A stretch of 64,000 nucleotides of DNA from Balanoglossus misakiensis (lineage: Eukaryota; Animalia; Hemichordata): positions 1,643,344 through 1,707,343 of the forward strand of contig CM082584.2 of assembly GCA_040954595.2 (NCBI GenBank), written 5' to 3'. The notes below the pieces were generated by a model, which made no database searches, had not been told where the DNA came from, and saw only the letters and a list, made by a program, of their open reading frames with translations. A program made the position numbers and the translations under genes. Below, piece after piece: positions 9,001-53,100 of this stretch. Each line of letters begins with the position of its first letter. The stretch's first letter is position 1.

Positions 9001-12000
9001 TTGATGATTTTCACCCATGATTTTTTTCAAAAATCGACGAAATTTTGAGATTTCGCAAAGTCGAAAATTTGTCATTTTTTGATGATTTTCACCCATGATT
9101 TTTTTCGAAAATCGACGAAATGTTGAGTTTTTGCAAAGTCGAAAATTTGTCATTTTTTGATGATTTTCATCCATGATTTTTTTTTAAAAATCGACGAAAT
9201 TTTGAGATTTTGCAAAGTCGAAAATTTGTCATTTTTTGATGATTTTCACGCAGGATTTTTTTTCACAAATCGACGAAATTTTGAGATTTATTTGTCATTT
9301 TTTGATGATTTTCAACCATTATTTTTTTTCAAAAATCGACGAAATTTTGAGATTTTGCAAAGTCGAAAATTTTGTCATTTTTTGATGATTTTCACCCATG
9401 ATTTTTTCAAAAATTGATGAAATTTTGAGATTTTGCAAAGTCGAAAATTTGTCATTTTTTGATGATTTTCACCCATGATTTTTTTCGAAAATCGACGAAA
9501 TGTTGAGTTTTTGCAAAGTCGAAAATTTGTCATTTTTTGATGATTTTCATCCATGATTTTTTTTTAAAAATCGACGAAATTTTGAGATTTTGCAAAGTCG
9601 AAAATTTGTCATTTTTTGATGATTTTCACCAATGTTGTTTTTAAAAAATCGACGAACCCATGATTTTTTTCAAAATCGACGAAATTTTGAGATTTTGCAA
9701 AGTCGAAAATTTGTCATTTTTTGATGATTCTCAACCATTATTTTTTTTCAAAAATCGACGAAATTTTGAGATTTTGCAAAGTCGAAAATTTGTCATTTTT
9801 TGATGATTTTCACCCATGATTTTTTTCAAAAATCGACGAAATTTTGAGATTTCGCAAAGTCGAAAATTTGTCATTTTTTGATGATTTTCACCCATGATTT
9901 TTTTCGAAAATCGACGAAATGTTGAGTTTTTGCAAAGTCGAAAATTTGTCATTTTTTGATGATTTTCATCCATGATTTTTTTTTAAAAATCGACGAAATT
10001 TTGAGATTTTGCAAAGTCGAAAATTTGTCATTTTTTGATGATTTTCACCAATGTTGTTTTTAAAAAATCGACGAACCCATGATTTTTTTCAAAATCGACG
10101 AAATTTTGAGGTTTTGCAAAGTCGAAAATTTATCATTTTTTGATGATTTTCACCCAGGATTTTTTTTCACAAATCGACGAAATTTTGAGATTTTGCAGTT
10201 GTAAATTTGTCATTTTTCAATGATTTTCCTCCATGATTTTTTTTCAAAAATCGACGAAATTTTGAGATTTTGCAAAGTCGAAAATTTGTCATTTTTTGAT
10301 GATTTTCACCCATGATTTTTTTCAAAAATCGACGAAATTTTGAGATTTTGCAAGGTCGAAAATTTGTCATTTTTTGATGATTTTCACCCAGGATTTTTTT
10401 TCACAAATCGACGAAATTTTGAGATTTATTTGTCATTTTTTGATGATTTTCAACCATTATTTTTTTTCAAAAATCGACGAAATTTTGAGATTTTGCAAAG
10501 TCGAAAATTTGTCACTTTTTGATGATTTTCACCTATGATTTTTTTCAAAAATCGACGAAATGTTGAGATTTTGCGAAGTCGAAAATTTGTCATTTTTTGA
10601 TGATTTTCACCCATGATTTTTTTAAAAAATCGACGAAATTTTGAGATTTTGCAAAGTCGAAAATTTGTCATTTTTTGATGATTTTCACCCAGGATTTTTT
10701 TCAAAAATCGACGAAATTTTGAGATTTTGCAAAGTCGAAAATTTGTCATTTTTTGATGATTTTCACCCATGTTTTTTTTAAAAAAATCGACGAACCTATG
10801 ATTTTTTTCAAAATCGGCGAAATTGTGTGATTTTGCAAACTCGAAAATTTTGTCATTTTTTGATGATTTTCAACAATAATTTTTTTTCAAAAATCGACGA
10901 AATTTTGAGATTTTGCAAAGTCGAAAATTTTGTCATTTTTTGATGATTTTCACCCATGATTTTTTCAAAAATTGATGAAATTTTGAGATTTTGCAAAGTC
11001 GAAAATTTGTCATTTTTTGATGATTTTCACCCATGATTTTTTTCGAAAATCGACGAAATGTTGAGTTTTTGCAAAGTCGAAAATTTGTCATTTTTTGATG
11101 ATTTTCAACCATGATTTTTTTTTAAAAATCGACGAAATTTTGAGATTTTGCAAAGTCGAAAATTTGTCATTTTTTGATGATTTTCACCAATGTTGTTTTT
11201 AAAAAATCGACGAACCCATGATTTTTTTCAAAATCGACGAAATTTTGAGATTTTGCAAAGTCGAAAATTTGTCATTTTTTGATGATTTTCAACCATTATT
11301 TTTTTTCAAAAATCGACGAAATTTTGAGATTTTGCAAAGTCGAAAATTTGTCATTTTTTGATGATTTTCACCCATGATTTTTTTCAAAAATCGACGAAAT
11401 TTTGAGATTTCGCAAAGTCGAAAATTTGTCATTTTTTGATGATTTTCACCCATGATTTTTTTCGAAAATCGACGAAATGTTGAGTTTTTGCAAAGTCGAA
11501 AATTTGTCATTTTTTGATGATTTTCATCCATGATTTTTTTTTAAAAATCGACGAAATTTTGAAATTTTGCAAAGACGAAAATTTGTCATTTTTTGATGGT
11601 TTTCACCCATGATTTTTTTTCAAAAATTTACGAAATTTTGAGATTTTGCAAAGTCGAAAATTTATCATTTTTTGATGATTTTCACCCAGGATTTTTTTTC
11701 ACAAATGGACGAAATTTTGAGATTTTGCAGTCGTAAATTTGTCATTTTTTAATGATTTTCCTCCATGATTTTTTTTCAAAAATGGACGAAATTTTGAGAT
11801 TTTGCAAAGTCGAAAATTTGTCATTTTTTGATGATTTTCCCCCATGATTTTTTTCAAAAATCGACGAAATTTTGAGATTTTGCAAAGTCGAAAATTTGTC
11901 ATTTTTTGATGATTTTCACCCATGTTTTTTTTAAAAAAATCGACGAACCTATGATTTTTTTCAAAATCGGCGAAATTGTGTGATTTTGCAAACTCGAAAA

Positions 12001-20437: not shown

Positions 20438-21921
20438 CATAGGTACTTGACTCAGAGTAAACAAGATTGTGTAATTGATACATGTCAGAACGAGATAGAG
20501 ATATCACGCGCTAAGTTCATGTTTAAGAAATATTAAGATGACGTGTTCTTTTTATGACATAATACTTGACTAACGTATTAATAAGAGGTGGTGAAATTTG
20601 ATATCACATTATTATCACCGGAGATCCGTGACGGGAGTCAACGAGCATGGATAGAGTCGTGTAATTCTTACGTGTGACCAGTAATAAACCAGAACTATTT
20701 GTGTTACTCGGAAAACTTGTTGAAAGTCTCGTTATGCCTCTCGTTAAGTTTACGATATGCCGGGTACCTCTCTCTGACTCTATGAATATGTTGGGTGGAG
20801 AAGGAGAGGGAGAGAATTTACACTCTCACCCTTCGGACGTGGCTGATTCCCCAAAGAAGCCCCGATGAGGTAAACGTCCGAAGGATGGCGGGCGTAACAA
20901 AACTACAGTGTTCGCAACATGACCTCAGGTCCGCCGCAGGTTTTGCATGTTACAGCAGAAAAAATCTCCGTCAGACCACTAAAAGTAATACCTTTAGGAC
21001 ATAAATTATTTATCTTGAAAGATATTGCTGTATGCAAAGATTGTCGGCCAGTCAACATCACCAACGATATTAACAATATAAAATAAATAAAATTTCAACG
21101 ATTCAACTTCTTTTCTAGCTTCCTATCTGGATAGTTTGTTTTATTTTACTCTAAAGATCGCCTTTCTTCCAGGCCACGTGGCAAGAGACGTTTTCAACTT
21201 CTACTATGATCGATGCGAGAGTACTATAGTATTCTCATATACACAGACAAAGGCCACCAAAATAAGAGAATCATTTGGTCAAATGGTAGAGGGCGCAAAA
21301 ACAGATATTTCAAATGACAAAATTTTCCGATAAACGTGTTTAATCAAATCAAACTGTGCTCAATGGTATGCTTGCAAAATTGAATACAAATGAAACAAAA
21401 CACAGCAACTGCCATGAACAAGAAGTTTATTCATGTCAAAATTCAATTTTTTTGAATCATTGATTTCAATTATTAGCTGAAAACTAAAATTAGATTGTCA
21501 TCTTGAACAGTATAAAATCAGCGAGCCATTAGACATTAAGTACCCAGCATACTAAAATAAAACCATGTAAACATGCACAATTAGATAATCAAATAATTTT
21601 TATTTATTCACCATGATGTTTTTAATGTATGTCAAGTCAAAGTACTTGAAGTTATGGACGATCAATTAAAATAGAAAACTGTAATTTTAATGGTTGGGTA
21701 ATGTATCCAATTTCTGCCCAATATATGAAATTTCCGAGTTAGCAACTGAAGAATTCGTGGGGAAAATAGTTACGTGATGTGTAACAGAATTCACTTGGAA
21801 GTAAGGAGTTTTTGTAAAATCAACATGCATATTACAATTTATTTGTAAAAACTTGATTGGCAATGGAAAATTGGCGTTTAAATATATAGTACTTCAAGAT
21901 GAACAGATAAAGTATAAGTTA

Positions 21922-21958
21922 CACTACGGGCCAGACCCACTGTAGTTTGAGCAGTATT
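21922..21958 (+). repeat. Left TIR (bipartite)
   Basis: cactacgggccagac-N11-tgagcagtatt matches the reverse complement of the right end, cactgcggcccaaac-N11-tgggcagtatt, at 12/15 and 10/11 positions. Confidence 0.88.
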
Positions 21959-22005
21959 CCGCGAAGCGCGATTGCCGCCATCACCGTAGCAACGCTTTTT
22001 CCAAG

Positions 22006-22659
22006 ATGGCGGCGGCCGTGTTGGTTGATACGGAGAAAATCATACAGCGCAAATTACGAGCTGCTAAGTCATTAATTCTGCGTCGAAAATGTATGTTGGA
22101 TGTTATACATGTACATTCCCTGTTTGATGAATTGTCCGATTCAGCCAAAAGGGTTCTACTGAGGAACGACAAGATTACAAAAGACAAAATTCGTTATCGA
22201 GATGTTGCGGTATTCCCTATTTTCCAACGTGAAATGGGTCACTGGCTGCGTTGTTTCCACGCACGCCTGTCAGCCTCACCTTCGTTGAGATCGCCTTGGA
22301 AAAGCGGCTTTTCTAGACAAATGCCCAAGGAAGTGTTTGCTGTATTTCATCATGACGCCACTCGGAATAGTTTTGGGATCCATGAGAAGACGTCCAAGGC
22401 CATCGTAACCTTGACCTTTACCAACCTATTGAAGCTGACTTACGTCCTGCGGAGAGGTTGCTGTGATGACAGAAATCTCGGACCGGAAGATAAGGAGAAT
22501 GTGCTGGCGAGAGTGGTCAAAGGAAAGCGAGTGGCTGTCATATGCACAGAAACAAAGCCGTGTATTGTCAAATACTACATGAACAGGGAATCTGTTGTGG
22601 TCAACTTTTGCTTTGGAGCCTGGAACAAACACAGCATTCCAATGCACTCAGAGAACTAG
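22006..22659 (+). CDS. Transposon accessory protein of unknown function, 217 aa, intronless
   Basis: Uninterrupted ORF with higher GC than its surroundings and a strong start context (caagATGGcgg). AATAAA follows at ~22769. It lies inside the TIRs and converges on the transposase gene. Confidence 0.75.
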   Translation: MAAAVLVDTEKIIQRKLRAAKSLILRRKCMLDVIHVHSLFDELSDSAKRVLLRNDKITKDKIRYRDVAVFPIFQREMGHWLRCFHARLSASPSLRSPWKSGFSRQMPKEVFAVFHHDATRNSFGIHEKTSKAIVTLTFTNLLKLTYVLRRGCCDDRNLGPEDKENVLARVVKGKRVAVICTETKPCIVKYYMNRESVVVNFCFGAWNKHSIPMHSEN

Positions 22660-23421
22660 AACATCAGTAACATTGCAAGTCTAATGCAAAATTGGCCTTC
22701 TGTCCAATACTCTTGACACTTCAGTCAATATATACAGTTTGTCGGTGTTGTGTTCTCATTAATTAAGAAATAAAAACAGTAGATTGAAAATGAAGTAGTA
22801 TTGTCTTTATTCAATTCCAACAATCAACATTACATGCAATACAGCAGAAGTACAAGGAATTGTCATGAATTTCATTATAAATTGCATTTAACTTTCTTAG
22901 CATTCAATAAATATAAAATCATTCAATTTGATATATACAATTCATGGGATTTGAAAGTTAACTTATTGTGATTTTAACTAAATTAAATTAATGTATTCTG
23001 ATTATCGTTAATTACTTAGCAAGGAAATCTTATAATTATATTCAATATTATTGTAATATGATAGACTTAAGACACAAACGTTTCAAATCTATTCATTTAG
23101 ACTGTAATAGAATATCACATTAACCCTGCATTTAAGGTTTGTGTTAGTACAGATAACATGCAGTTGTATCAGAATCATGACATGTTTATGTACACTGTGA
23201 GAATACTGAAGTTCATGATGTTGCATATATACCGTTTAGTTACAATGGCCTGACATGCATCTGTTGTAACAGTTGTGAACACAGAAGTGTGGCAGAGTTT
23301 ATTTCCAGTTTAATACATGTTAATAATATCATTCATTTCAATTTGACATTCACAACATTTCAACACGGTAAGTTAAAAACACTGAAACAGGAAACATTTT
23401 GCACAGAAGGGCAAAAACACT

Positions 23422-26350
23422 TCACAGAACAATTTTCTTCAGTTTATTACTCAGCTTGCCAGACACTGCTGCTTGTTTTATTTCAGCAATAACTGGGTCA
23501 TTACAAATTTTACATGTAGACACTGCTTCATCTTTCATGTTACCACACATACAGTAACCTGCACTGTCATAGTACAGACTGGGTATATATTTTTCTCTTT
23601 CTTTAAGTTCATACTGAACTAGATTGGCCCGCCTATATTTGTCTGCTTTTGGATTTCTTTCTCTTAGCCAAAAGAGCATTGTGTATTCATGGCGGAATAT
23701 GAGGGTCCACCTGTTCTGAGGAGTGGAATTCTTACTCAATTCAAGAAGACGAAGATGTTTTGCTTCTCGACCTTCCATAGTATTCAACCCCAAACCAAGT
23801 TTGAATTGCTGATACACACTTGCTGCATGTTTAGGTACTGCGTATCCAATATGCCAAACAGTATTATTTACATCAAAAAATAGTGAATGGAGGTTAAAGT
23901 ACCATGTACATTTCTGTTTCAGGACAAGTAAATCCCCTTCACTCAGATTAAACCTTGAAAAGAGCAAGGTAATATCCCTCAGCAACAACCCAAGATATGT
24001 GAAAAGAGCCAATCGAGCTCGCCGCTTTACACTATCTTTATCACCCATGGGTGTCTTAATCAGTGACATGAATTTCCATGCTAGTTTACGGGACTCTTCC
24101 CCAGTAAAGCGATAAACAGCACTTATTTGAGAAAGTGATTTTGCATTGTTTTCACTAAAGAACTTTCAAATTTTGTTGTACAGTTTTCCAGCTCTCACTT
24201 GGTATTTTAATGCAGACAGGAATTTGTATAGACAAGACTCCTTTGGGAGATTTTCAATCTTAACTCCCTTATCAAAATCTGTTTGTGAAGTGTGAGCAAC
24301 TGCATCTATCAACAGCATCTGGAAATAGTACTGCCATGCATTGTTTTTCATGTGCAATGGTTCAACTTTAGCACAGTCGATAAATCGACCAAGAGGGGGT
24401 ACAAATTCCTGTCTGGATTTTCTACTGGCTATAAATTTAGTGACTTTTGGCCGCACAGTTTTTGGCTTGCCATCTCTATTCTTTGGTTGCGATTTGAATT
24501 TCTCCACAGCTTCAACATCTTTAATGCGTTTGTCATATGACCATTCTTGCCATTTTTTACCTGGACCAATATCTGCTCCAATACAATCTCTATCTGACTT
24601 TGAAACATTAGCAAAAGAGCTTAAGTACTGTGCAGCATTGGAAAGCTCTCCAGGCATTGAAGCTAAACCTTTCTGATCAAAAGGCAAGAGCGAAACTTGG
24701 AAAGTCACACAAAGATTGCCAACATTGTATTTACGTTTCTGGATACAATTCAGTTCTTTTGATAATGAATGTGCATAGTCAATCATAATCGGATCATCTT
24801 CTTTGAGATTTGCCCCCAACAGTAGAAAATTATCATCTGGGCTTGCAACACGATGTCCAACATTCAAACAACTGACCAACCAGGCAGTAGCTTGGCCATG
24901 TTTTCCAAATGGTGCACCATCAGCACCTATACTAATCTGGAAGTTACCTTCTTGTCTATCAAACCAGTTAAGAATGTCTGGCTGGGTTGATTTCATTTGT
25001 AAATACAGATTGGCAATCTTAACAAGTAACTCTTCAATGTTACGTTTCAAACCTACCTGTTTCCCTTCTGCTGTCAGAATGGGTTCAAGAGTACAAATAT
25101 CAAGATTACTAACATAGCGTACAACTTTGTTGTATGTCAGTAATCTTGGTATTCTGCAGCCAAAGTGAAACTGCATTGCCCTACTTGGATTTTGTATTTT
25201 AGATGATGTTTGCAGTTCACTCAGCCTCAGACAAGTGTATTTGCGTTTTGATAGCACTCCACCCTCATACAGAACTCTGACACTCCTTATTAAATTGCTT
25301 TCACTTTTTTCAAATTGATCAATAGATTTGTCTACTATCGATGGCATTAATTTCTCTCTGATTTGAGGTGATGTTTTCAAATAGGTTTCAATCTGTTCAG
25401 GTTTGGCAGAGTTGATGAGGGTAAACCACAAACCATCAAGTGCAGCTTTTGAAGGTTTCAATCTGGTAAAATTACCTACACCATTGGCTAAACTGGTATC
25501 GGTTGTTGATACATGAATAGATGTGGCGGCTGACAAGGTTTTACATCTACGTTCATACTGTTCACGCCGTGATATTGTCAAAACCTCACTGTTATCTTTA
25601 CACACTTCTGAGTTCTTGTGAATCCACCTGGGTTGCAAAGCATCTAGTTTTCTCTGCAAGATTACACAAAAAAATGTACATGAAGAGGTTAGTGGATTTA
25701 TCAGCCTAAATTTTGAGCATTTCATTGTGATTATAGGAGCAAGCTAGTAATCCCAAGGACTTCAAAATATGCATGATAAAAACAGACGATGTTCCCCTAA
25801 CATTAGCTAACTGTGCATATGATTGAATTCTATTTGAGTAAAACTGACAAATTAAATTTATTCAATCGTTTAAACTCACTGTACCTTTATACTGTAGGTC
25901 CTAGCACCTAACTCCTGTCTCACATTATTATTCCTCTGCTCAAGTCTAGAAAGACGGGTTTTAGCCCGTTTTACTAGTCTTTTAGCAGCACTGATCTTAT
26001 TAAGGTTATCCTCGATTATGCTACTCTCCTGATCCCTCTTTCTCTTCCGCTGTCTAGACCACTCCCCCAAGTTAAACCGATATTTTGGCTGGCATTCTTC
26101 TGTCCTCTATAGCAAGGCATTAGTCTGCACTCTTTCTAGCAATGACCTAGTCTTTGAATTTTCTCTTAATAGCTCCTGTGAATGCTTTTCCTTTGCAATT
26201 TCTCTGGCTAGCTTCTGTTCCTTTGCCCACTGACCTATGTTGAAGTATGTTGTTTTCTTTCCTACTTGGCATGTTGATGGATAAACTTTGCAGGGGTGCC
26301 CTACATCTAAGTAACAGTTTACTCCACCACATACCTGAGCTGTTTCTGAT
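23422..26350 (-). pseudogene. RAG1/Transib-like DDE transposase, ~900 aa when reconstructed. Probable exons 26350-~25885 and 25653-23422, possible first exon 27209-27164.
   Basis: Motifs are collinear with the RAG1 core: LSKRKY, IGADG (D1, 24919-21), VASPDDNFLL, PFDQK (D2, 24676-78), EPLH, YRFTGEESRKL, TMEGREAKH (E, 23764-66). In-frame stops at 26107-09 and 24166-68 join ORFs in the same frame. Polypyrimidine-CAG acceptors lie at 26351 and 25654. Confidence 0.85.
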
Positions 26351-27255
26351 CTGAAGAGGAAAATTACAATGAATAAGAATGTATAATAATTAATAATTAT
26401 GCATGTATATTTATAGTACATTAGTGACTTTAGTATTTTTCAACCGATACCCAACAGCAATGCAAAGAAAATCACTGAAAGACATTTGATAAAACCTGCT
26501 CTGAGCTAGGCATATCGACCACAGCTCTCCATACATACCAACGTGTATACGCAGAGATGGGCATATTTCAATGGGAGAATTGGAGTGAATATAACTGTAC
26601 TGCGCAGACACAGGTTCAAAATTTTCTGTTTTGATTTTTAACTTTGCATTTATAGTGTAATGCATTAAGTACGTAATTTAGCTAAAACTATTGGTTCTCG
26701 ATTTTAAAATTTAATCCATTCCAACTCAGACTTTTGCTAACAAAACCACACGCAGTGACAGCTGAGACGTGTCGCCATTGCAGTACATGTAAACACAGCC
26801 GGAGGCGTACGACATGCTGAGGTATCGAGAATCGCTTGGTGTAATTTCGTTAAACCTGTGGTAGCAGTTGTTCAAATATAACATCCGTGAAATAACCATA
26901 GTTAGGTAAACTCGTATGGTTTTGAAATGTCAGATAACAGGTTAGCAAGGCTAAATCGTTGAATTTTCCACCCTGTGTAAGTGGTTGCTGAGGGCAGTGC
27001 TGTCGTTAGCAACAGCACACCCGCGCGGTAAATCAGTTATTTTTAAAGTTATTTCAGTGATTCAATATGAAATGTACAGATGAAATAATATTTTTGTTTC
27101 GTTTACTGTGAACACTATTATGTATGGTGCAGTAGATCGTAAAAAATGACAAGAAACACTTACCGAATTTCACTGTATTCAGGTTTCAGCTCCGCTGAGC
27201 GACCGCCATGATCGCGCTAATTAATTATTCATGAGCTATTGAAACGCGCCACAGA

Positions 27256-27292
27256 AATACTGCCCAGAGAGGGCGGCGTTTGGGCCGCAGTG
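27256..27292 (-). repeat. Right TIR (bipartite)
   Basis: The minus strand reads cactgcggcccaaac-gccgccctctc-tgggcagtatt. The second TTA follows at 27293-27295. Confidence 0.88.
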
Positions 27293-28420
27293 TTATTACA
27301 GATGTCATTTTACGACAACAAGGAATGGTAAATCGTTCTTTAATATCTTTAAAGATGCCAGGTCAAAGGTCACCTTTGCAAATTCAACCACTGGTACCAT
27401 AGCCATTTCAAATGTAGCCAAAAGTGCGCCACCACTTTCTTCAAACATACTGAAACCATCTACAGGTTACCGTAGTCCTATATCTCTTGGCATCCATGGC
27501 AGTTTAGCTAGTCATGAGCTGGCAAGGGGTGACCTGTAAGCTTTAAACTCTGGCTTCGGTAATGTCGACTCTGGCTCTGGCATATACTTGCAGGTCCTTA
27601 TGACCTTGGGGTGAACATGGTCATGAAGAAATAAATAGAATCTGTTTGGTGCATTGTCAACTTCATTTTATAGTTTCAAAAAAATACAATATGATGAGTA
27701 ATATTGTTGTTGTTTTCAAAGAGACTCACCACACACTTTAGTAAATCAATGACTTGAAAAAGTTTTGAGGACTATCATTTGTCTGAATCTCGGACCGCGA
27801 GGCACATACTACCTTAAATAGTTTCACTCGCAGCTTCTTGTGGGCAGTTTCTCCTTGGGTACCTGTACAGACACACCAGGAGGCCGTTCCCGATGAACAA
27901 CTCAACCCACATGAAAACATTCAAGCGTCTGGTCACACCCATTTCCGTCAAACAAGAACATGAATGAAACTGCGGAGGAAGAGAACGGGAGAGTGCCCAT
28001 TAACCCTGTAATGACCAATCATTTACTGGAACAAGGTTCAGGATGTACGATCACTGGAGTTGAAAATAAGGTCATGGATTTGAAAATTATTCTGAGTTAT
28101 GAAATTGAAAATACTTATTTTTCATTGTGGATTCTCCGACATAAATATTATCAAAAACAATAAGGGTTGTCTTTTTAATTTATGACATATAACGCCATGA
28201 ATCTAGCCCATTAATACAAAGGCAATACTAAAACACATTTCGGGTTAGCGTTATGACAACTTGAAGAAAGTATGAATACAAACTTTCTAAAGTAATATTT
28301 TAAAGGTTGGCGTATTGATTACAGCTTGTTTGTTCTGCTATTAATGGAAATTCGGTTAGAGCCGTTTGAGGCAACTCTTATTCTGTCAAAGTTATGGCGT
28401 TAACTTATTCTGTCAAAGTT

Positions 28421-32034: not shown

Positions 32035-35000
32035 GACTAGTTCACCATGACCAACCACATGACCCAGGAAATCGATCTGCTCATAACCCACATAACACTT
32101 AGTTGGTCTCGCTGTTAACTTTGCCTTTCGTAGTCTGCTCATCAAATCTGTAATTGTCTTGATATGTTCTTCCCATGATGCAGTGTGGATCAGTATATGA
32201 TCGATATAGTTGTCTCAATCTTCATATCTCTTAACAATCTTCTCATAATTCTGCTAAAAGTCGCAGCACTATTTACAAGTCCGAAATGCATTTTGATAAA
32301 TTGGTATAGCCCATCATGCGTGATAAATGCCGTCAATTGTTTAGAATTATCAGTCAACGGGACTTGCCAATATTCTTTGCTGAGATCTACTTTAGTGAAA
32401 TAGTGATCCTTGGATAACTTAGCAAAAAGCAAAAAGCTCACTCAGGTCTGGTGTAGGCTCTGCATCAAACACTGTTATGCGATTGAGCTTTCTCATGTCA
32501 ACACAACAATGATTGGACCCATCAGATTTCTTCACCATTACCAGTGGAACAGCATATGGACTCTCTGAAGGTTCAGCTACTCCCATCTTAATCATCGTTT
32601 TGACTTCATCTTTCACTGCTTCACGGAGTGCATGAGGGATGGGGTATGGCCTACTGCATACTGGTGTTGGATCCATCAACTTGATGTCATGGAAACCCAG
32701 GTTGGTGTTACCACGAATATCAGTTAACATATCTTTGTAATTGATCAGCAACCTCCTCACCACTTGCTTCTGTATGTCTGACAAGTTGTCACATACATTC
32801 ACATCTGCAGCAAATTCTTTCTGCTTGAATGCAGGAACCCGCAGTAAGTCATCGTTTACTTTAACCCCTGTGTTCTCTTGTACTTCTGAAGATTCATAAC
32901 TCTGCTCATCTATCACAGATACACACACAATCTCAAGAAGTCCAGCTGATACTTATTCTAGCTGATCAGTTCTTCGATAGTACCTCTTCAACAGGTTGGC
33001 ATGGAATGTTTTCACCCTATGACCAAAGTCAATCTTGTAATCCATATTGCTCGCTTTCTCCACCACTGGAAAAGGACCCTTCCAGTGCATAAGTAGTTTA
33101 TTATGGTCAGTAGGTAGTAGCAATAACACCTCGTCACCTTTGTTGAACTTCCTCCATTTGGCCTTTCTATTGTAGTAGGACTTGTATTTGCCTTGTGATA
33201 TCTTCAGTTCTTGTCTTGCTAAATCGCATGCCTTCTTTAATTTCTTTTGAAGATCAAGGATGTATTGATAAGTCGTTTTGGTTTCTGGTTCACTGATCTC
33301 TCCAGTCCATAGTTCTTTCAAGATAGCCATTGGACCACGCACACTCCTCCCATAAAGTAACTCAAACGGAGAGAATCCTGTGCTCGATTGAGGCGTTTCT
33401 CTGTAGGCAAATAGTAAAGCATTCAGATAACGATCCCAATATGTTGGACGTTCCTCACACATCTTCCTGAGCATGAGTTTCAATGTACCATTGAACCGTT
33501 CCACTAGACCATTGAATGCTGGGTGGTATGGGGTGGTAGTCATCTGCTTTATAGACAAAAGCCGGCTGACCTCACGCATCACATCTGATGTAAATTGAGT
33601 TCCTTGATCTGTCAGAATTCACGTGGACACCCCACTCTTGAGTAGATGTCCAGGAGCGCCTCTGCAACAGTCTTGGTATCAATGTTAGTCAATGCAACAG
33701 CCTCCGGATAGCGTGTTGCATAATCAACAACAGTAAGTATGTACCTATTCTTGCGTTCAGTGCATGGATGAATAGGGCCAACCAGGTCTACTGCAATACG
33801 TAGGAAAGGGATATCTATTAGTGGCATACTTCCAAGTGGTACCTTGGTCACCCGTCCCTTTGGTTGTGTCCGTTGACATGAATCACAGGACTGACAGTAA
33901 CGGGAAACATCTGATGTTAGCCCAGGCCAAACGAAGTTGCTGAGGATCTTGTCTGTGGTCTTGTGAGTTCCGTGGTGACCACGCAGCACTGATTCATGGG
34001 CTAGTCTCATCACCTGGTTACGATACACTCTGGGAACCACCACCTGTAACAGCTTTTCACGAAATTGGACCATTGGCGAATTGAACTCTCTGTACAGGAT
34101 CCCATCTTTCATGATGAACTTCAACCTACCTCCATTCCTAGTCACTTTCTCGTCACCCAAAATTGCCTTCTCACGTAGTTTGTCAAGAGTGGAGTCTTCT
34201 TCTTGAGCTTGTTGAAGCTTCCCTGGCATCACCACTTCACCAACAGCTTTAGGTACTTTAAGCTCTCTGATTGGTTTTTGGTTGGCTATCTTCTGGGCTC
34301 TGGTCTCCACAGCATATGCTAAACCTGGTACCTGTCCAACAGTTGTACACAGTCTACATGTCGGCAATGGTTCCTGCCATGTAGTATCAGGATTCGAAGG
34401 GTCAGATACACCATCAATGTTGCCCAGTATTAAATCATACACAGGGTTCATCATGCACAGTGCAGTAACATCACCAACAAAGTAAGGGGTATCAACTTTT
34501 ATTGAGGCTACAGGTACTCTTCTAATAGTCCGATCTATCAGAACACACGTCCTGTACTCACCAGTCAGCTGACTACTTGACACCAGACTTCTTCGAACTA
34601 CCACGCTACTACACCCACTATCACGCAAAACGCTAACCAGCTTACCATCGACCAATCCCTTCATTACCGGCATCTTCTTCACTCCATGGGCACTACAAGC
34701 AGCACTCATCACTGGGAGCTTATGACCACATGGTAACACGAACTCCTTATTCAGTGTTGCATCTGTTTTATCTATTTCCATTGCTACCACCATACATGCA
34801 TAACCAGTGTCTAGTCCCCTGGGCTGTTGACGGTTGCCCCAATGTGTACATTCTTGTTTAGGTGGATAGTTTCTATCTTCTTCAGTTAACAATACCGCCG
34901 TGTTATGCATCTTTGGCTTACTTCTACAATCTTTGGCCATATGACCACCTTTACCACATACGAAGCACGTACCTTTAAAAACATGGGAACCATTGGTTTT

Positions 35001-35856
35001 GTTATTAAACTTCTTTACTTGATTTGGATATACAGCAGGCTTGGTATTTGCTGTCGGCTGGCTCCTTGGATTATTCTTGGCATTACTTGGCAGTTTCCAC
35101 CACCCTCGGGCATCTAAGTATTTTGAGGCAGTAGATACCATCTCTTGGACATTCTCTGGCCGTCGCTCTCTAATGAACATTGCCATGTCTCTGGAACATA
35201 CTCCAATAAACTGCTCTCGAAGTAACAGATCTGTAAGCCCATTGTACGTCTTTGGAGTACCAGCCAGTTCTACCCATCTGCCCAAATAGTCACCAATACG
35301 GTCCATAAACTTTTGAGCACTTTCATCATAATGTGGCATACACGAACGGAACTTGTCATGAAAACTCTCCTCACTTAACTGGTAAGCCCTCAATAACTCT
35401 GGTTTCAATTCATCATAATTATTTGCAGACGCTGCAGGCATTTGGTTGTATGTGGATACATCCTTACCTTGTAACAATATGCACTGAGATTCACCCCCAG
35501 TCATCTTTTTCCCACTTCTGAGCAGTGGCGTAGCGCTGAAAACGTTGAAGGTACGCATCCATATCATCAACATCCTCACGAAAACCCTGTAGTCTCGGAG
35601 CACGCGCTTTGGCCAAATTATTTTCAGTAACCTGCTGTTCTGTATTTTCCCCTTTCAATTTTAATTCTTGTAAGTGAAGTTGCATTTTCAGTATCTCTCT
35701 CTCATGTTCCTCGCGCCGCCTATTATCTTCTCTCTGCTCCTCTCTCTCAGTAGCCCTAAGATCCCTCTGTCTAATTTGTTCCTCTCTAACATAATCTTTT
35801 AAAGCAGTCCCTTCCAACCCAAATTTTTCTCCCTATCTTATATATTCTTTCTGCAT
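32035..35856 (-). pseudogene. Disrupted gag-pol: SCAN-like capsid region, CCHC knuckle, aspartic protease, integrase, reverse transcriptase
   Basis: Motifs LLREQF, CFVCGKGGHMAKDC, LRDSGCS, HHCC, IAVDLVGP, DQGTQF, NGLVERFNGTLK, WKGPF, KVDLSKEYWQV and FGLVNSAATF. YxDD is mutated to YIDH. Several frameshifts (~35490, ~33615, ~32440, ~32215) and stops are present. Confidence 0.93.
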
Positions 35857-44189: not shown

Positions 44190-47100
44190 CCATCATTAGC
44201 AATGTCAAATTACAGTGCTTTTGGCCACATATCAACCTGGGGATTTACAGACAACTTAAAATCCCCCTCAGCAGGCATTTAATCCCCATGTCAAAGTGCA
44301 GAGCTTGCATCACCATCTACCCCTTACAGTACTTATGGCCATGTATTAACCTAGGGATTTACAGTCAACATTAAATACTCATGCATATATTAACCTGGGA
44401 ATTTACATTCAACATTAAATACCCATGCACATGCATTAAATATGTATGCCAAAGCGCAGAGCTTGGATCACCATCTACACTGATGCATCATTAGGCTTGC
44501 TACGCCATTTCCCCTAATGCAAAGAATCACATTCAATGTCACCATTGTATTAGCTATGTCAAATTTCAGTGCTTTTGGACTTGTATTAACCCAGGGATTT
44601 TCAGTCAACTTTTAATCCCCATATGCATTTAATACCCATGTCAAAGTGAAGTGTTTGCATCACTATCTACCGGGATGCATCATCAAGCTTGCATCGCCAT
44701 TTACCCTGATGCAAAGAATCAGATTCAGTGTCACCATTTCATTAGCAATGTAAAATAAAATTGCTTTTTGCCAAGTATTAACCTGGGGATTTACAGACAA
44801 CTTTAAATACCCATGTATATACATTTAGTACCTATATCAAAATGCTTAGCTTGCATCACCATCTACTCAGATGGATCATTAGGCTTGCTACGCCATTTCC
44901 CATAATGCAAAGAATCAGATTCAATGTCACCCTTACATTAGCAATTTTAAACTACAGTGCTTTTGGAGATGTATTAACCTGGGAATTTACATTCAACATT
45001 AAATACCCAAGCACATGCATTAAATACCTATGTCAAAATGCATAGCTTGCATCACCGTCTACTCCATTGCATCATTAAGCTTGCTTTGCCATTTGCCCTA
45101 ATGCGGAGAATTACATTCAATGTCAACATCGCATTAGCAATGTCAAATTACAGTGCTTTTGGACGCGTATTAATCCAGGGATTTGTAATCAACTTGAAAT
45201 CCCCATATGCATTTAATGCCCATGTCAAAGTGAAGTGTTTGCATCACTATCTACCATGATGCATCATCAAGCTTGCATCGCCATTTACCCTGATGCAAAG
45301 AATCGGATTCAATGTCATCGTTGCATTAGCAATGTCAAATAAAATTGCTTTTGGCCACGTATTAACCTAGGGATTTACAATCAATTTTAAATCCCCATAT
45401 GCATTATATTCCAAGTCAATGTGAAGGGCTTGAAAAACCATCTACGCTGATGCATCTTCAAGCTTGCTTCACCATTTACCCATATTCAATGTAACCTTTG
45501 CATTAGTAATTTTAAATTACAGCGCTTTTAGCCATGTATTAACCTCGGGATTTAGAGTCAACTGTAAATATCAATGCGTATGCATTAAATACCCATGTCA
45601 TAGTGCAGTGTTTCCATCACTGTTGACCCTAATACATCATCAAGCATGCTTCACAATATGCCCTGATGCAAAGAATCAGATTCAGTGTCACCATTTCATT
45701 AGCAATGTCAAATTATAGAGCTTATGGCCATGTATTAACCTGGGGATTTACAGACAACTTTAAATACCCATGTATATACATTTAGTACCTATGTCAAAAT
45801 GCTTAGCTTGCATCACCATCTACTCAGATGGATCATTAGGCTTGCTAGGCCATTTCCCATAATGCAAAGAATCAGATTCAATGTCACCCTTACATTAGCA
45901 ATTTTAAATTACAGTGCTTTTGGAGATGTATTAACCTGGGAATTTACATTCAACATTAAATACCCATGCACATGCATTAAATACCTATGTCAAAATGCAT
46001 AGCTTGCATCACCGTCTACTCCATTGCATCATTAAGCTTGCTTTGCCATTTGCCCTAATGCGGAGAATTACATTCAATGTTAACATCGCATTAGCAATGT
46101 CAAATTACAGTGCTTTTGGACGCGTATTAACCCAGGGATTTGTAATCAACTTGAAATCCCCATATGCATTTAATGCCCATGTCAAAGTGAAGTGTTTGCA
46201 TCACCATCTACCGTGATGCATCATCAAGCTTGCATCGCCATTTACCCTGATACAAAGAATCGGATTCAATGTCATCGTTGCATTAGCAATGTCAAATAAA
46301 ATTGCTTTTGGCCACGTATTAACCTAGGGATTTACAATCAATTTTAAATCCCCATATGCATTATATTCCAATGTCAATGTGAAGGGCTTGAAACACCATC
46401 TACCCTGATGCATCTTCAAGCTTGCTTCACCATTTACCCATATTCAATGTAACCTTTGCATTAGTAATTTTAAATTACAGTGCTTTTAGCCATGTATTAA
46501 CCTCGGGATTAAGAGTCAACTGTAAATATCAATGCGTATGCATTAAATACCCATGTCATAGTGCAGTGTTTCCATCACTATTGACCCTAATGCATCATCA
46601 AGCATGTTTCACAATATGCCCTGATGCAAAGAATCACATTCAATGTCACCATTGCATTAGAAATTTTAAATTACAGTGCTTTTGGCCATGTATTAACCTA
46701 GGGATTTACAATCAATTTTAAATCCCCATATGCATTATATTCCAATGTCAATGTGAAGGGCTTGAAACACCAGCTACCCTGATGCATCTTCAATCTTGCT
46801 TCACCATTTACCCATATTCAATGTAACCTTTGCATTAGTAATTTTAAATTACAGCGCTTTTAGCCATGTATAAACCTCGGGATTTAGAGTCAACTGTAAA
46901 TATCAATGCGTATGCATTAAATACCCATGTCATAGTGCAGTGTTTCCATCACTATTGACCCTAATGCATCATCAAGCATGCTTCACAATATGCCCTGATG
47001 CAAAGAATCAGATTCAGTGTCACCATTTCATTAGCAATGTCAAATTATAGTGTTTATGGCCATGTATTCACCTGAGGATTTATAGTCAACATTAAATACA

Positions 47101-50100
47101 CATGCATATGCATTAAATACCTATGTCAAAGTGCAGAGCTTGCATCACCATCTACTCTGATGCACTATTAGGATTGCTACGCCAGTTCCCCTAATGCAAA
47201 TAATCACATTCAATGTCACCATTGCATTAGCAATTTTAAATTACAGTGCTTTTGGCAATGTATTAACCTGGGTATTTACAATTAACTTTAAATCCCCATA
47301 TGCGTTATATTCCAATGTCAATGTGAGGGGCTTAAAACACCATCTATCCTGATGCATCATCAAGCTTGCTTCACAATTTACCCTAATGCAAAGAATCAGA
47401 TTTAGTGTCACGGTAGCATTAGCAATGTCAAATTACAGTGCTTTTGGCCACGTATTAACCTGGGGATTTACAGTCAACATTAAATACCCATGCATATGCA
47501 TTAAATACTTATGTCAAAGTGCATAGCTTGCATCACCATATACTCTGATGCATCATTAAGCTTGCTTCGCAATTTGCCCTGATGCAAAGAATCACATTCA
47601 ATGTCACCATTGTATTAGCTATGTCAAATTTCAGTGCTTTTGGACCTGTATTAATCCAGGGATTTTCAGTTAACTTTTAATCCCCATATGCATTTAATAC
47701 CCATGTCACAGTGAAGTGTTTACATCACTATCTACCGGGATGCATCATCAAGCTTGCATCGCCATTTACCCTGATGCAAAGAATCAGATTCAGTGTCACC
47801 ATTTCATTAGCAATGTCAAATAAAATTGCTTTTTGCCAAGTATTAACCTGGGGATTTACAGACAACTTTAAATACCCATGTATATACATTTAGTACCTAT
47901 ATCAAAATGCTTAGCTTGCATCACCATCTACTCAGATGGATCATTAGGCTTGCTACGCCATTTCCCATAATGCAAAGAATCAGATTTAATGTCACCCTTA
48001 CATTAGCAATTTTAAATTACAGTGCTTTTGGTGATGTATTAACCTGGGAATTTACATTCAACATTAAATACCCATGCACATGCATTAAATACCTATGTCA
48101 AAATGCATAGCTTGCATCACCGTCTACTCCATTGCATCATTAAGCTTGCTTTGCCATTTGCCCTAATGTGGAGAATTACATTCAATGTCAACATCGCATT
48201 AGCAATGTCAAATTATAGTGCTTTTGGACGCGTATTAACCCAGGGATTTGTAATCAACTTGAAATCCCCATATGCATTTAATGCCCATGTCAAAGTGAAG
48301 TGTTTGCATCACTATCTACCGTGATGCATCATCAAGCTTGCATCGTCATTTACCCTGATACAAAGAATCGGATTCAATGTCATCGTTGCATTATCAATGT
48401 CAAATAAAATTGCTTTTGGCCACGTATTAACCTAGGGATTTACAATCAATTTTAAATCCCCATATGCATTATATTCCAATGTCAATGTGAAGGTCTTGAA
48501 ACACCATCTACCCTGATGCATCTTCAAGCTTGCTTCACCATTTACCCATATTCAATGTAACCTTTGCATTAGTAATTTTAAATTACAGTGCTTTTAGCCA
48601 TGTATTAACCTCGGGATTAAGAGTCAACTGTAAATATCAATGCGTATGCATTAAATACCCATGTCATAGTGCAGTGTTTCCATCACTATTGACCCTAATG
48701 CATCATCAAGCATGCTTCACAATATGCCCTGATGCAAAGAATCACATTCAATGTCACCATTGCATTAGCAATTTTAAATTACAGTGCTTTTGGCCATGTA
48801 TTAACCTAGGGATTTACAATCAATTTTAAATCCCCATATGCATTATATTCCAATGTCAATGTGAAGGGCTTGAAACACCAGCTACCCTGATGCATCTTCA
48901 AGCTTGCTTCACCATTTACCCATATTCAATATAACCTTTGCATTAGTAATTTTAAATTACAGCGCTTTTAGCCATGTATTAACCTCGGGATTTAGAGTCA
49001 ACTGTAAATATCAATGTGTATGCATTAAATACCCATGTCATAGTGCAGTGTTTCCATCACTATTGACCCTAATACATCATCAAGCATGCTTCACAATATG
49101 CCCTGATGCAAAGAATCAGATTCAGTGTCACCATTTCATTAGCAATGTCAAATTATAGTGCTTATGGCCATGTATTAACCTGGGGATTTACAGACAACTT
49201 TAAATACCCATGTATATACATTTAGTACCTGTGTCAAAATGCTTAGCTTGCATCACCATCTACTCAGATGGATCATTAGGCTTGCTACGCCATTTCCCCT
49301 AATGCAAAGAATCAGATTCAATGTCACCCTTACATTAGCAATTTTAAATTACAGTGCTTTTGGAGATGTATTAACCTGAGAATTTACATTCAACATTAAA
49401 TACCCATGCACATGCATTAAATACCTATGTCAAAATGCATAGCTTGCATGACCGTCTACTCCATTGCATCATTAAGCTTGCTTTGCCATTTGCCCTAATG
49501 CGGAGAATTACATTCAATGTCAACATCGCATTAGCAATGTCAAATTATAGTGCTTTTGGACGCGTATTAACCCAGGGATTAGTAATCAACTTGAAATCCC
49601 CATATGCATTTAATGCCCATGTCAAAGTGAAGTGTTTGCATCACTATCTACCGTGATGCATCATCAAGCTTGCATCGCCATTTACCCTGATACAAAGAAT
49701 CGGATTCAATGTCATCGTTGCATTAGCAATGTCAAATAAAATTGCTTTTGGCCACGTATTAACCTAGGGATTTACAATCAATTTTAAATCCCCATATGCA
49801 TTATATTCCAATGTCAATGTGAAGGGCTTGAAACACCATCTACCCTGATGCATCTTCAAGCTTGCTTCACCATTTACCCATATTCAATGTAACCTTTGCA
49901 TTAGTAATTTTAAATTACAGTGCTTTTAGCCATGTATTAACCTCGGGATTAAGAGTCAACTGTAAATATCAATGCGTATGCATTAAATACCCATGTCATA
50001 GTGCAGTGTTTCCATCACTATTGACCCTAATGCATCATCAAGCATGCTTCACAATATGCCCTGATGCAAAGAATCACATTCAATGTCACTATTGCATTAG

Positions 50101-53100
50101 CAATTTTAAATTACAGTGCTTTTGGCCATGTATTAACCTAGGGATTTACAATCAATTTTAAATCCCCATATGCATTATATTCCAATGTCAATGTGAAGGG
50201 CTTGAAACACCAGCTACCCTGATGCATCTTCAAGCTTGCTTCACCATTTACCCATATTCAATGTAACCTTTGCATTAGTAATTTTAAATTACAGCGCTTT
50301 TAGCCATGTATTAACCTCGGGATTTAGAGTCAACTGTAAATATCAATGCGTATGCATTAAATACCCATGTCATAGTGCAGTGTTTCCATCACTATTGACC
50401 CTAATACATCATCAAGCATGCTTCACAAAATGCCCTGATGCAAAGAATCAGATTCAGTGTCACCATTTCATTAGCAATGTCAAATTATAGTGCTTATGGC
50501 CATGTATTAACCTGGGGATTTACAGACAACTTTAAATACCCATGTATATACATTTAGTACCTATGTCAAAATGCTTAGCTTGCATCACCATCTACTCAGA
50601 TGGATCATTAGGCTTGCTACGCCATTTCCCCTAATGCAAAGAATCAGATTCAATGTCACCCTTACATTAGCAATTTTAAATTACAGTGCTTTTGGAGATG
50701 TATTAACCTGAGAATTTACATTCAACATTAAATACCCATGCACATGCATTAAATACCTATGTCAAAATGCATAGCTTGCATCACCGTCTACTCCATTGTA
50801 TCATGAAGCTTGCTTTGCCATTTGCCCTAATGCGGAGAATTACATTCAATGTCAACATCGCATTAGCAATGTCAAATTACAGTGCTTTTGGACGCGTATT
50901 AACCCAGGGATTTGTAATCAACTTGAAATCCCCATTTGCATTTAATACTCATGTCAAAGTAAAGTGTTTGCATCACTACCTACCGTGATGCATCATCAAG
51001 CTTGCATCGCCATTTACCCTGATGCAAAGAATCGGATTCAATGTCATCGTTCAATTAGCAATGTCAAATAAAATTGCTTTTGGCCATGTATTAACCTAGG
51101 GATTTACAATCAACTTTAAATCCTCATATGCATTATATTCAAAAGTCAATGTGAAGGGCTTAAAACACCATCTATCCTGATGCATCATCATGTTTGCTTC
51201 ACCATTTACCCATATTCAATGTCACCCTTGCATTAGTAATTTTAAATAACAGCGCTTTTAGCCATGTATTAACCTTGGGATTTAGAGTCAACTGTAAATA
51301 TCAATGCGTATGCATTAAATGCCCATGTCATAGTGCAGTGTTTCCATCACTATTGATCCTAATGCATCATCAAGCATGCTTCACAATATGCCCTGATGCA
51401 AAGAATCAGATTCAGTGTCACCATTTCATTAGCAATATCAAATTATAGTGCTTATGGCCATGTATTAACCTGGGGATTTACAGACAACTTTAAATATCCA
51501 TGTATATACATTTAATACCTATGTCAAAATGCAGAGCTTGCATCAACATCTACTCCGATGCATCATTAAGCTTGCTTCGCCATTTGCCCTGATGCAAAGA
51601 ATCAGATTCAGTGTCACCATTTCATTAGCAATGTCAAATTATAGTGCTTATGGCCATGTATTCACCTGAGGATTTATAGTCAACATTAAATACACATGCA
51701 TATGCATTAAATATGTATGTCAAAATGCATAGCTTGCATCACCATCTAGTCCAATGCATCATTAAGCTTGCTTAGCCATTTCCCCTAATGCAAAGAATTA
51801 CATTCAATGTCACCATTTCATTAGCAATGTCAAATTACATTGCTTTTGGACACGTATTAACCCAGGGATTTGTAATCAACTTGAAATCCCCATATCCATT
51901 TAAACCCATGTCAAAGTGAACTGTTTGCATCACTATCTACCGTGATGCATCATCAAGCCTGCATCGCCATTTACCCTGATGCATAGGATCAGATTCAATG
52001 TCACCATTGCATTAGCAATGTCAAATAAAATTGCTTTTGGCCACGTATTAACCTGAGGATTTACAGTCAACTTCAAATCCCCATATGCGTTATATTCCAA
52101 TGTGAATGTGAAGGGCTTGAAACACCATCTGTCCTGATGCATCATTAAGCTTGCTTCGCCATTTACCCTGATGCATAGAATCAGATTCAATGTCACTGTT
52201 GCATTAGCAATGTCAAATAAAAGTTCTTTTGGCCATGTCTTAACCTAGGGATTTATAATCATCTTTAAATCCCTATATGCATTATATTCAAAAATCAATG
52301 TGAAGGGCTTGAAACACCATCTATCCTGATGCATCATCACGTTTGCTTCACCATTTACTCATATTCAATGTCACCCTTGCATTAGTAATTTAAAATTACA
52401 GTGCTTTTGGCCATGTATTAACCTCGGGATTTAGAGTCAACTTTAGATATCAATGTGCATGCATTAAATACCCATGTCAAAGTGAAGTGTTTGCCTCACT
52501 ATCTACCGGGATGCATCATCAAGCCTGCAATGCCATTAACCCTGATGCAAAGAATCAGATTCAATATCATTGTTGCATTAGCAATGTCAAATTACAGTGC
52601 TTATGGCCACGTATTAACGTGATGATTTACAGTCAACATTAAATACACATGCATATGCATTAAATACCTATGTCAAAGTGCAGAGCTTGCATCACCATCT
52701 ACTCTGATGCACCATTAGGCTTCCTACACCATTTCCCATAATGCAAAGAATCAAATTCAATGTCACCATTGCATTAGCAATTTTAAATTACAGTGCTTTT
52801 GGCCAAGTATTAACCTGGGGATTCACAATCAACTTTCAATCCCCATATGCGTTATATTCCAATGTCAATGTGAAGGGCTTGAAACACCATCTATCATGAT
52901 GCATCATCAAGCTTGCGTCACAATTTACCCTGATGCAAAGAATCAGATTAAGTGTCACGGTAGCATTAGCAATGTCAAATTACAGTGCTTTTGGCCACGT
53001 ATTAACCTGATGATTTACAGTCAACATTAAATACCCATGCATATGCATTAAATACCTATGTCAAAGTGCAGAGCTTGCATCACCATCTACTCTGATGCAC

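Follow-up and report, generated by a model that had tools for sequence, protein, structure and literature searches.

Within a 64,000-nucleotide stretch of DNA from the hemichordate Balanoglossus misakiensis (assembly GCA_040954595.2, contig CM082584.2, positions 1,643,344 to 1,707,343 of the forward strand; hereafter the window, numbered from its first letter), we describe a transposon of about 5.4 kb, apparently of the cut-and-paste type, whose transposase is predicted to share the core fold of RAG1 and Transib. The protein keeps the D-D-E catalytic residues, lacks, as do all relatives examined, the pair of cysteines that in RAG1 helps to bind a zinc ion, and has an insertion domain between the second and third catalytic residues that likely folds without that zinc; to this reading as a whole we assign a probability of about 0.7. 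A first-pass annotation, made from the letters and a list of open reading frames (ORFs), had noticed the RAG1-like core and had argued, from an apparent loss of zinc ligands, for a zinc-independent insertion domain.

The main exon of the transposase gene, which the first-pass annotation had delimited correctly (23422..25653), forms a single continuous frame on the minus strand with one interruption, an in-frame TGA that the annotation had not recorded. A word-indexed search retrieved 247 related proteins at E <= 0.001. Among the 120 of these matches that were listed, an acorn-worm sequence annotated as "uncharacterized protein", from Ptychodera flava, stands nearest (81% identity), the others are 36-46% identical, and the named sources include the cnidarians Nematostella, Actinia, Actinostola, Dendronephthya and Porites and the nemertean Lineus; the clusters formed by relatives at 90% identity comprise as many as 302 members. 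When 1.84 billion representatives were searched exhaustively with a profile, 3,224 proteins were found at E <= 0.001, 2,060 at 1e-10 and 688 at 1e-30. These matches make up a large family, drawn mainly from cnidarians, to which hemichordates and nemerteans also contribute. It has apparently been active recently; corals have intact members, and B. misakiensis has a near-intact sister copy. Residue counts given below as fractions of 91 derive from an alignment of 91 family proteins (A2); further sets comprised 80 metagenome loci and 141 additional representatives at 50% identity.

The catalytic motifs proposed by eye in the first-pass annotation proved correct. D245, D326 and E630 are each invariant in the family (91/91), which identifies IGADG, PFDQK and MEGREA as the motifs that hold the three catalytic residues; the same complete conservation is found at G250, N264, G280, K328, W371, R414, E416, P419, T517, G518, W600, R629, K632, H633, W649 and H655. 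In the further representatives the three acidic residues are kept in 90/91, 107/107 and 62/64, respectively. E285, conserved in 90/91 aligned proteins and 91/94 further representatives, may, on the model of the "DEDE tetrad" of RAG1-like (RAG1L) proteins (PMC10629977), be a fourth acidic residue of the site.

An AlphaFold2 model of the window transposase (with X at the stop, built on the 91-row alignment) has a mean predicted local distance difference test score (pLDDT) of 89.7 and a predicted template-modelling score of 0.85. Foldseek returned 49 matches to it in the PDB at E <= 0.001, all of those listed being RAG1, HzTransib or BbRAGL chains (best 8.8e-13), and the next match was a P-element transposase at 4.7e-3. 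The closest known systems of solved structure are mouse RAG1 (PDB 5ZDZ, 4WWX, 6CG0), amphioxus BbRAG1L (PDB 6B40) and HzTransib (PDB 6PQX). VIA-align gave Z 23.1 for mouse RAG1 (root-mean-square deviation 3.7 A over 466 residues, model 114-670 on RAG1 460-1006), 20.3 for BbRAGL (model 114-711 on chain 545-1125) and 19.9 for HzTransib (424 residues aligned), with the P element at 12.3, ISCth4 at 7.6 and Hermes at 6.3. In the predicted structure the likeness to RAG1 and RAG1L starts in the dimerisation/DNA-binding domain and continues into the C-terminal domain, and takes in the order of the D-D-E residues, the long insertion that separates the second Asp from the Glu, and the spacing within the motif after the second Asp. 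The likeness of the model to RAG1 is far beyond chance at the level of the fold and invisible in sequence: searches of PDB sequences with phmmer (single sequence) and with profiles gave no match, to RAG1 and Transib or to any other entry, and the RAG1 model PF12940 matched neither the window protein at E <= 1 nor any of 32 family members at E <= 10, the newer split RAG1 models (PF26100 etc.) lying outside that search. Since the PDB holds no CMC-type transposase, these Z and E values cannot separate a "RAG1/Transib-like" from a "CMC-like" protein.

Mouse RAG1 uses D600, D708 and E962 for catalysis and binds one zinc through C727, C730, H937 and H942 (PMC4914335). Its cysteines thus follow the second Asp by 19 and 22 residues, and its histidines precede the Glu by 25 and 20. 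At the same distances from D326 the window protein has S345 and A348, within the string SSFA that the first-pass annotation had set against the CxxC, and this replacement extends through the family. Column 345 of the alignment holds S in 80 proteins, C in 7, N in 3 and T in 1, column 348 holds A in 81, G in 7, S in 2 and V in 1, and Cys occupies both in none; nor does any of the 91 proteins have a CxxC, CxC or Cx4C from D326 to H434 of the conserved EPLH motif. Among the 73 metagenome loci (of 80) with a readable motif, the two positions are S/A in 45, S/G in 24 and another non-Cys pair in 4, with Cys at 345 or 348 in none. Both columns are covered in 113 of the 141 further representatives; two cysteines occur there in none of these and a single one in eight. 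The C(2)C that follows the second Asp elsewhere in the wider clade is thus missing from 91 proteins, 73 loci and 113 representatives alike. Sporadic CxC or CxxC strings, seen in 3 of 72 loci and 2 of 80 representatives, fall in variable loops or over EPLH and not at the RAG1 position, and were set aside.

On the histidine side the picture is mixed. The first-pass annotation had judged both histidines before the Glu to be out of register. This fails for H609, in the string PKH, which lies 21 residues before E630 (H942 lies 20 before E962 in RAG1) and is His in 90/91 aligned proteins and 61/70 further representatives; it stands for the other, as H601 of the string WH is Thr in 77/91 and position 604, which has the H-x4-H spacing (E630-26), is Tyr in the window. 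Residues at 604 in the alignment are H in 40, Y in 32, V in 8, F in 5 and K in 3, with L, N and Q also occurring, and in the further representatives Y in 22, N in 20 and H in 13; on a tree, the sequences with His604 form one clade of 35 and a group of five, with ten state changes in the column. On this variation, position 604 is not a constrained ligand. H-x4-H is accordingly present in 40/91 proteins, Y-x4-H in the window copy, and H609 alone is fixed. Comparison of homologues, the check that the annotation had proposed, therefore gave a divided answer, CxxC being kept in none and HxxxxH in 40/91, and its "loss of all four together" does not describe a family in which H609 is nearly invariant and a whole clade of 35 has His604. 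When the four ligands of the RAG1 site (ZnB) are mapped by spacing, S345, A348 and Y604 stand at three of the places and only H609 is conserved; across the sequences compared, the RAG1-type zinc site is without its Cys pair family-wide, and of its two His positions one is fixed and one variable.

The window copy is itself decaying, and the absence of the Cys pair is separate from that decay. Contigs of two public runs (X1, X2) of one sample contain a sister copy about 99.6% identical to it, the longest piece differing by 14 substitutions and 3 gaps over 3,879 bases. Relative to the sister, the window copy has three disabling lesions, a frameshift of one extra base, a TAG and the TGA, and the sister has none of them. 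Their main exons differ at seven sites (the TGA, five non-synonymous and one synonymous), and the sister has the family's commonest residue at three of the five non-synonymous sites (L344F, P334S, C187G). Codons 345 to 348 are the same in both copies, so that the sister keeps S345 and A348. Because the cysteines are missing family-wide, from 91 proteins, 73 loci and 113 representatives, and the sister is identical at these codons, their absence is not the decay of one copy, as the first-pass annotation had also held.

Upstream of the main exon, an acceptor-like ...ttgcag directly precedes 25653, a GT donor lies at 25884-25883, and a further coding exon continues in the same phase, which on splice consensus shows a gene predicted to have at least two exons. 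The upstream exon has an N-terminal motif twice in tandem, YFNIGQWAKEQK and RFNLGEWSRQRK, where homologues of other phyla show one; the surplus base lies six codons past the ATG and splits it from this conserved motif.

A search for inverted 16-mers and the boundaries of the sister copy delimit the element. Its termini are CAC...GTG, with imperfect inverted ends of 15 bp that start 5'-CAC and match at 12 of 15 positions (end A against the reverse complement of 27278-27292); GCAGTATT recurs about 30 bp, and ATGGCGG about 80 bp, inside both ends, and no subterminal 8- to 10-mer occurs three or more times across both ends of the element. The sister copy ceases to match the window precisely at 21922, with loose ends in X1 and X2 alike, and at 27289-27294; the ends of the element are thereby confirmed, and a second locus is shown. 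No empty insertion site was seen among the X1 and X2 contigs, and no contig joins across the element; nor is any RNA data set listed as containing it. Three groups of near-identical elements, from metagenome contigs of coral type, also have CAC ends, with termini CACGCCGAGCT, CACGCCGGGCCAGCG and CACGCTGGGCAC..., the second being close to the terminus of the window element. The window element is flanked by TTA on both sides (TTA/CAC...GTG/TTA), a candidate 3-bp target-site duplication read in one copy, where a chance match is possible.

These features also bear on whether the gene might be a host gene of the RAG1 type, domesticated from a transposase and no longer mobile. Its closest named relative, at 81%, is the annotated "uncharacterized protein" of P. 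flava, and an intron is predicted, both as might be expected of a host gene; against this, it is flanked by inverted CAC ends and a candidate TTA duplication, has a 99.6% identical copy at another locus, bears three disabling lesions in the window, belongs to a family with 90%-identity clusters of up to 302 members, and lies between satellite arrays. We regard domestication as highly improbable. As a mobile element, its CAC ends would be cut by D245, D326 and E630, possibly with E285, in an RNase H-like site using two metal ions, and it would be excised and then inserted, as CMC and Transib elements are, with a staggered cut of 3 bp.

As to the insertion domain, it is likely zinc-independent: the region from D326 to E630 would be held by side-chain packing where RAG1 has its Cys2His2 zinc, with H609 perhaps kept for another role. 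Several points weigh against the reading given at the outset. S345 and A348 are equated with C727 and C730 by their equal spacing from the second Asp and by motif context, not by residue-level superposition. The model has pLDDT >= 92 over residues 341-380 and >= 95 over 601-630 with no metal in it; AlphaFold2 models zinc proteins confidently without their zinc, however, so that such values are no proof of zinc independence. The candidate target-site duplication is seen in the one copy, and metagenome contig flanks are inconsistent and show no regular duplication, probably because the assemblies are chimeric at repeat ends. The family may, moreover, already bear a name in Repbase or RepeatMasker, whose libraries lay outside our search. 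Finally, H609 is nearly invariant and H434 (90/91), H633 and H655 (both 91/91) are conserved too, so that other ligands may make up a metal site. In that event H609, with H604 where present, would join H434, H633 or H655, or acidic residues, and the domain would stay metal-dependent; three conserved histidines are reported for the clade by Kojima 2025 (PMC12730594). Set against such a rebuilt site are the lack of a second invariant ligand at the Cys positions, the occurrence of V, F, K, L, N and Q at 604, and the place of H633 three residues past E630, where a contact with the active site or DNA seems likelier. Another possible set of ligands, C283/H287/C525/H526, was examined and rejected, as it shows no consistent four-ligand pattern and is L, D, A and W in the window copy. 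We consider a rebuilt zinc site quite unlikely.

Zinc independence of the insertion domain would not extend to the whole protein. A C-terminal CxC-x10-CxxC motif has Cys at C701, C703, C714 and C717 in 88, 88, 88 and 85 of 91 proteins, and with this motif conserved the transposase is probably not zinc-free. The motif likely binds zinc and DNA, in analogy to the zinc-knuckle tail of invertebrate RAG1-like proteins, which clamps DNA (PMC10629977); it sits at the place of that tail, the BbRAGL alignment extending to model residue 711 at chain residue 1125. Beyond this motif, distant full-length relatives end in a SAP DNA-binding domain (P0278, residues 916-940, E 6.8e-8; P0325, 714-745, E 1.7e-5). 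A C2H2-like finger precedes the SAP domain in P0278, P0325, P0276 and P0295, and the tail of the window transposase has two short helices, with no Pfam match, at the place of the relatives' SAP.

Comparison with named systems sets the family apart from each of them in some respect. Kojima 2025 (PMC12730594) unites EnSpm/CACTA, Mirage, Chapaev, Plavaka, ESTA, Lanisha and Transib in one clade, here termed CMCT with RAG1 included, whose common traits are C(2)C and H(3-4)H, 5'-CA..TG-3' ends and target-site duplications of 2-5 bp. CA...TG termini are present in the window element and in the three metagenome groups, the candidate duplication falls within 2 to 5 bp, and the D-D-E has the long insertion, the second D-to-E distance being 304 residues in the window protein and 254 in RAG1. 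Transposase_21 and Plavaka clusters are among its structural neighbours in the ESM Atlas. The ends, which read CACTAC..., resemble the name-giving terminus of CACTA elements. The family differs from the clade as described in lacking C(2)C, in having H(3-4)H in only 40/91 proteins, in giving no Pfam match to PF02992, PF18759 or PF06918, and in having a conserved partner gene of its own (PF26709). From RAG1 it is further distinguished by the absence of sequence-level similarity, of the two zinc cysteines (one zinc His position being fixed) and, in the window transposase, of a RING or N-terminal zinc domain; from RAG-like transposons by a candidate duplication of 3 bp, not 5, and a partner of about 210 residues (aa) that is not a kelch propeller. 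HzTransib resembles it in fold (Z 19.9), CAC-starting ends and cut-and-paste transposition, whereas Transib is reported to have C(2)C and H(3-4)H (PMC12730594) and has a canonical duplication of 5 bp (bioRxiv 10.64898/2026.08.26.747230) and a single gene, not two. Because of its ends, the likely 3-bp duplication and the non-kelch partner, the element is placed in the wider CMCT clade and not among RAG-like transposons proper.

Within that clade the element could be an ordinary member of a catalogued CMC lineage (Chapaev, Mirage or EnSpm-like), its missing C(2)C a known or trivial subfamily trait. The CAC ends and the 3-bp candidate duplication fit such a member, as do comparisons in the ESM Atlas: by structure, template-modelling scores are 0.63 for RAG1, 0.62 and 0.61 for Transposase_21 (PF02992) clusters, 0.59 for Plavaka and 0.58 for a fungal cluster with DUF1280 in 16% of its members, and by language-model features the nearest named cluster is that fungal one (0.97), ahead of RAG1-domain clusters (0.95 to 0.92). 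At sequence level, however, the window transposase has no Pfam match at E <= 1, none of 32 family members matches any transposase family of Pfam at E <= 10, DUF1280 (PF06918), Transposase_21 (PF02992), Plavaka (PF18759) and RAG1 (PF12940) included, and none of the 120 homologues listed has a precomputed Pfam domain. Neither the DUF1280 match looked for as a sign of Chapaev nor the Transposase_21 match looked for as a sign of EnSpm/CACTA was thus found among these 32. An N-terminal Chapa domain has been described (bioRxiv 10.64898/2026.01.24.700457), and in the 91-protein alignment no conserved Cys/His cluster of this kind precedes residue 166, the only conserved N-terminal His being H47. All CMCT lineages share C(2)C according to Kojima 2025 (PMC12730594), and we found no published description of the family in the literature, the Repbase and RepeatMasker libraries apart. 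Membership of a catalogued lineage is, on balance, possible and deserves to be kept in view, if less probable than not.

The second gene of the element, ORF2, is convergent (tail-to-tail) with the transposase gene. Where metagenome loci have at least 1,500 bp downstream of the transposase, 31 of 34 contain there a convergent ORF2 homologue of 156-278 aa, as do 22 of 23 with 2,000 bp or more, these loci not being independent of one another. Sixteen mutually divergent versions were aligned, and are 14-49% identical to that of locus L008. A profile search gave 72 proteins, mostly of about 200 aa, of which 62 carry the precomputed Pfam accession PF26709.1; no mention of PF26709 was found in the literature. 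The AlphaFold2 model of ORF2 (pLDDT 83.8) comprises a helical hairpin (residues 2-87) and a small alpha/beta domain (99-206). Foldseek found nothing for it in the PDB at E <= 0.001 and no RAG2 match, and a wide VIA-align comparison with the PDB aligned the N-terminal hairpin with generic coiled coils only (best Z 8.7), barely covering the alpha/beta domain. The layout recalls the convergent RAG1L-RAG2L pair; since the modelled ORF2 is not a kelch propeller, we rejected a RAG2-like identity for it, and ORF2 is likely an accessory factor. We also entertain, tentatively and as a distinctly speculative proposal, that a very large unnamed lineage with the RAG1 fold (more than 3,000 representative proteins) does without the structural Cys2His2 zinc, elsewhere reported to be universal between En/Spm and RAG1, and uses a small, non-kelch, tail-to-tail partner, an independent two-subunit solution on the RAG1 scaffold.

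Two of the metagenome elements show an arrangement of their ends that touches both genes. In L008 (3130-3213 on the plus strand and about 9300-9400 on the minus strand) and L023 (3705-3857 and 7945-8100), some 85-155 bp are repeated in inverted orientation near both ends. One of the two repeats codes for a portion of ORF2, the other for a portion of an upstream ORF on the transposase side. Both elements have an inward-facing ATGGCGGC at both ends, which suggests that each end gives the start for one of the two genes.

The zinc of RAG1, bound by its Cys2His2 ligands, ties together two halves of the insertion domain, and mutations of the site are among the class that destabilises the protein in human immunodeficiency (PMC4914335). 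According to the 2025 survey (PMC12730594), every En/Spm-Mirage-Chapaev-Transib-RAG1 lineage keeps C(2)C and H(3-4)H, and a family without the Cys pair departs from its clade-wide statement on C(2)C. If the present reading is right, the RAG1 scaffold can be stabilised by other means, the family offers a natural comparison for the role of zinc in RAG1, and a two-gene transposon with the RAG1 fold would join the few systems in which RAG-type chemistry and dependence on a partner can be tested. Having no Pfam model, the transposases are missed or left "uncharacterized" in genome annotation. The features of the window copy are collected in Table 1.

Table 1. Features of the transposon copy, in window coordinates
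Feature	Position	Strand	Basis or remark
Whole transposon copy, disabled	21922..27292		5,371 bp; inverted-repeat search and sister-copy boundaries
Candidate target-site duplication TTA, left	21919..21921		Direct reading; partner TTA at 27293..27295
Terminal inverted repeat, end A, CACTACGGGCCAGAC	21922..21936	+	Search for inverted 16-mers
ORF2, 217 aa, convergent with transposase	22006..22659	+	Starts 84 bp from end A
Transposase main exon, predicted RAG1-type core and C-terminal Cys4 tail	23422..25653	-	743 codons plus stop
C-terminal CxC-x10-CxxC motif (C701, C703, C714, C717)	23503..23553	-
Codon of catalytic E630 (second E of MEGREA; GREAKH)	23764..23766	-	Invariant 91/91
Y604-A-V-P-K-H609	23827..23844	-	Approximately the spacing of RAG1 H937-x4-H942
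In-frame TGA, codon 496 of main exon	24166..24168	-	GGA in sister copy
S345-S-F-A348	24610..24621	-	Spacing of RAG1 C727-x-x-C730
Codon of catalytic D326 (PFDQK)	24676..24678	-	Invariant 91/91
Codon of catalytic D245 (IGADG)	24919..24921	-	Computed from exon start 25653; invariant 91/91
Predicted intron, GT...AG, phase 0	25654..25884	-	Splice consensus and frame continuity
Upstream coding exon, tandem N-terminal motif	25885..26272	-	ATG 26272-26270
In-frame TAG in upstream exon	26107..26109	-	AAG in sister copy
Surplus of one base in upstream exon	near 26252	-	Sister copy one base shorter there
Terminal inverted repeat, end B, CACTGCGGCCCAAAC (minus-strand reading)	27278..27292	-	Search for inverted 16-mers
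Candidate target-site duplication TTA, right	27293..27295		Direct reading

Beyond the transposon, the window is eukaryotic and rich in repeats. An element resembling a long terminal repeat (LTR) retrotransposon lies at 32419-35603 on the minus strand, with three consecutive ORFs (663, 209 and 169 aa) that include a SCAN-like capsid, a CCHC knuckle, Integrase_H2C2, an rve_3 fragment and a Tf2-type SH3 domain; as no protease or reverse transcriptase was found in its ORFs of at least 150 aa, it is probably a rearranged or deleted copy. Satellite arrays flank the transposon on both sides. Positions 1-20437 are taken up by an AT-rich satellite, of some 26% GC, whose basic unit measures about 79 bp and whose higher-order periods range over 105-419 bp; this array flips orientation near 14800, so that its two parts form a giant inverted repeat; an array of about 50 copies of a 196-bp unit occupies 44384-54000, and another, of a 116-bp unit, begins at 58853 and runs to the end of the window at 64000.

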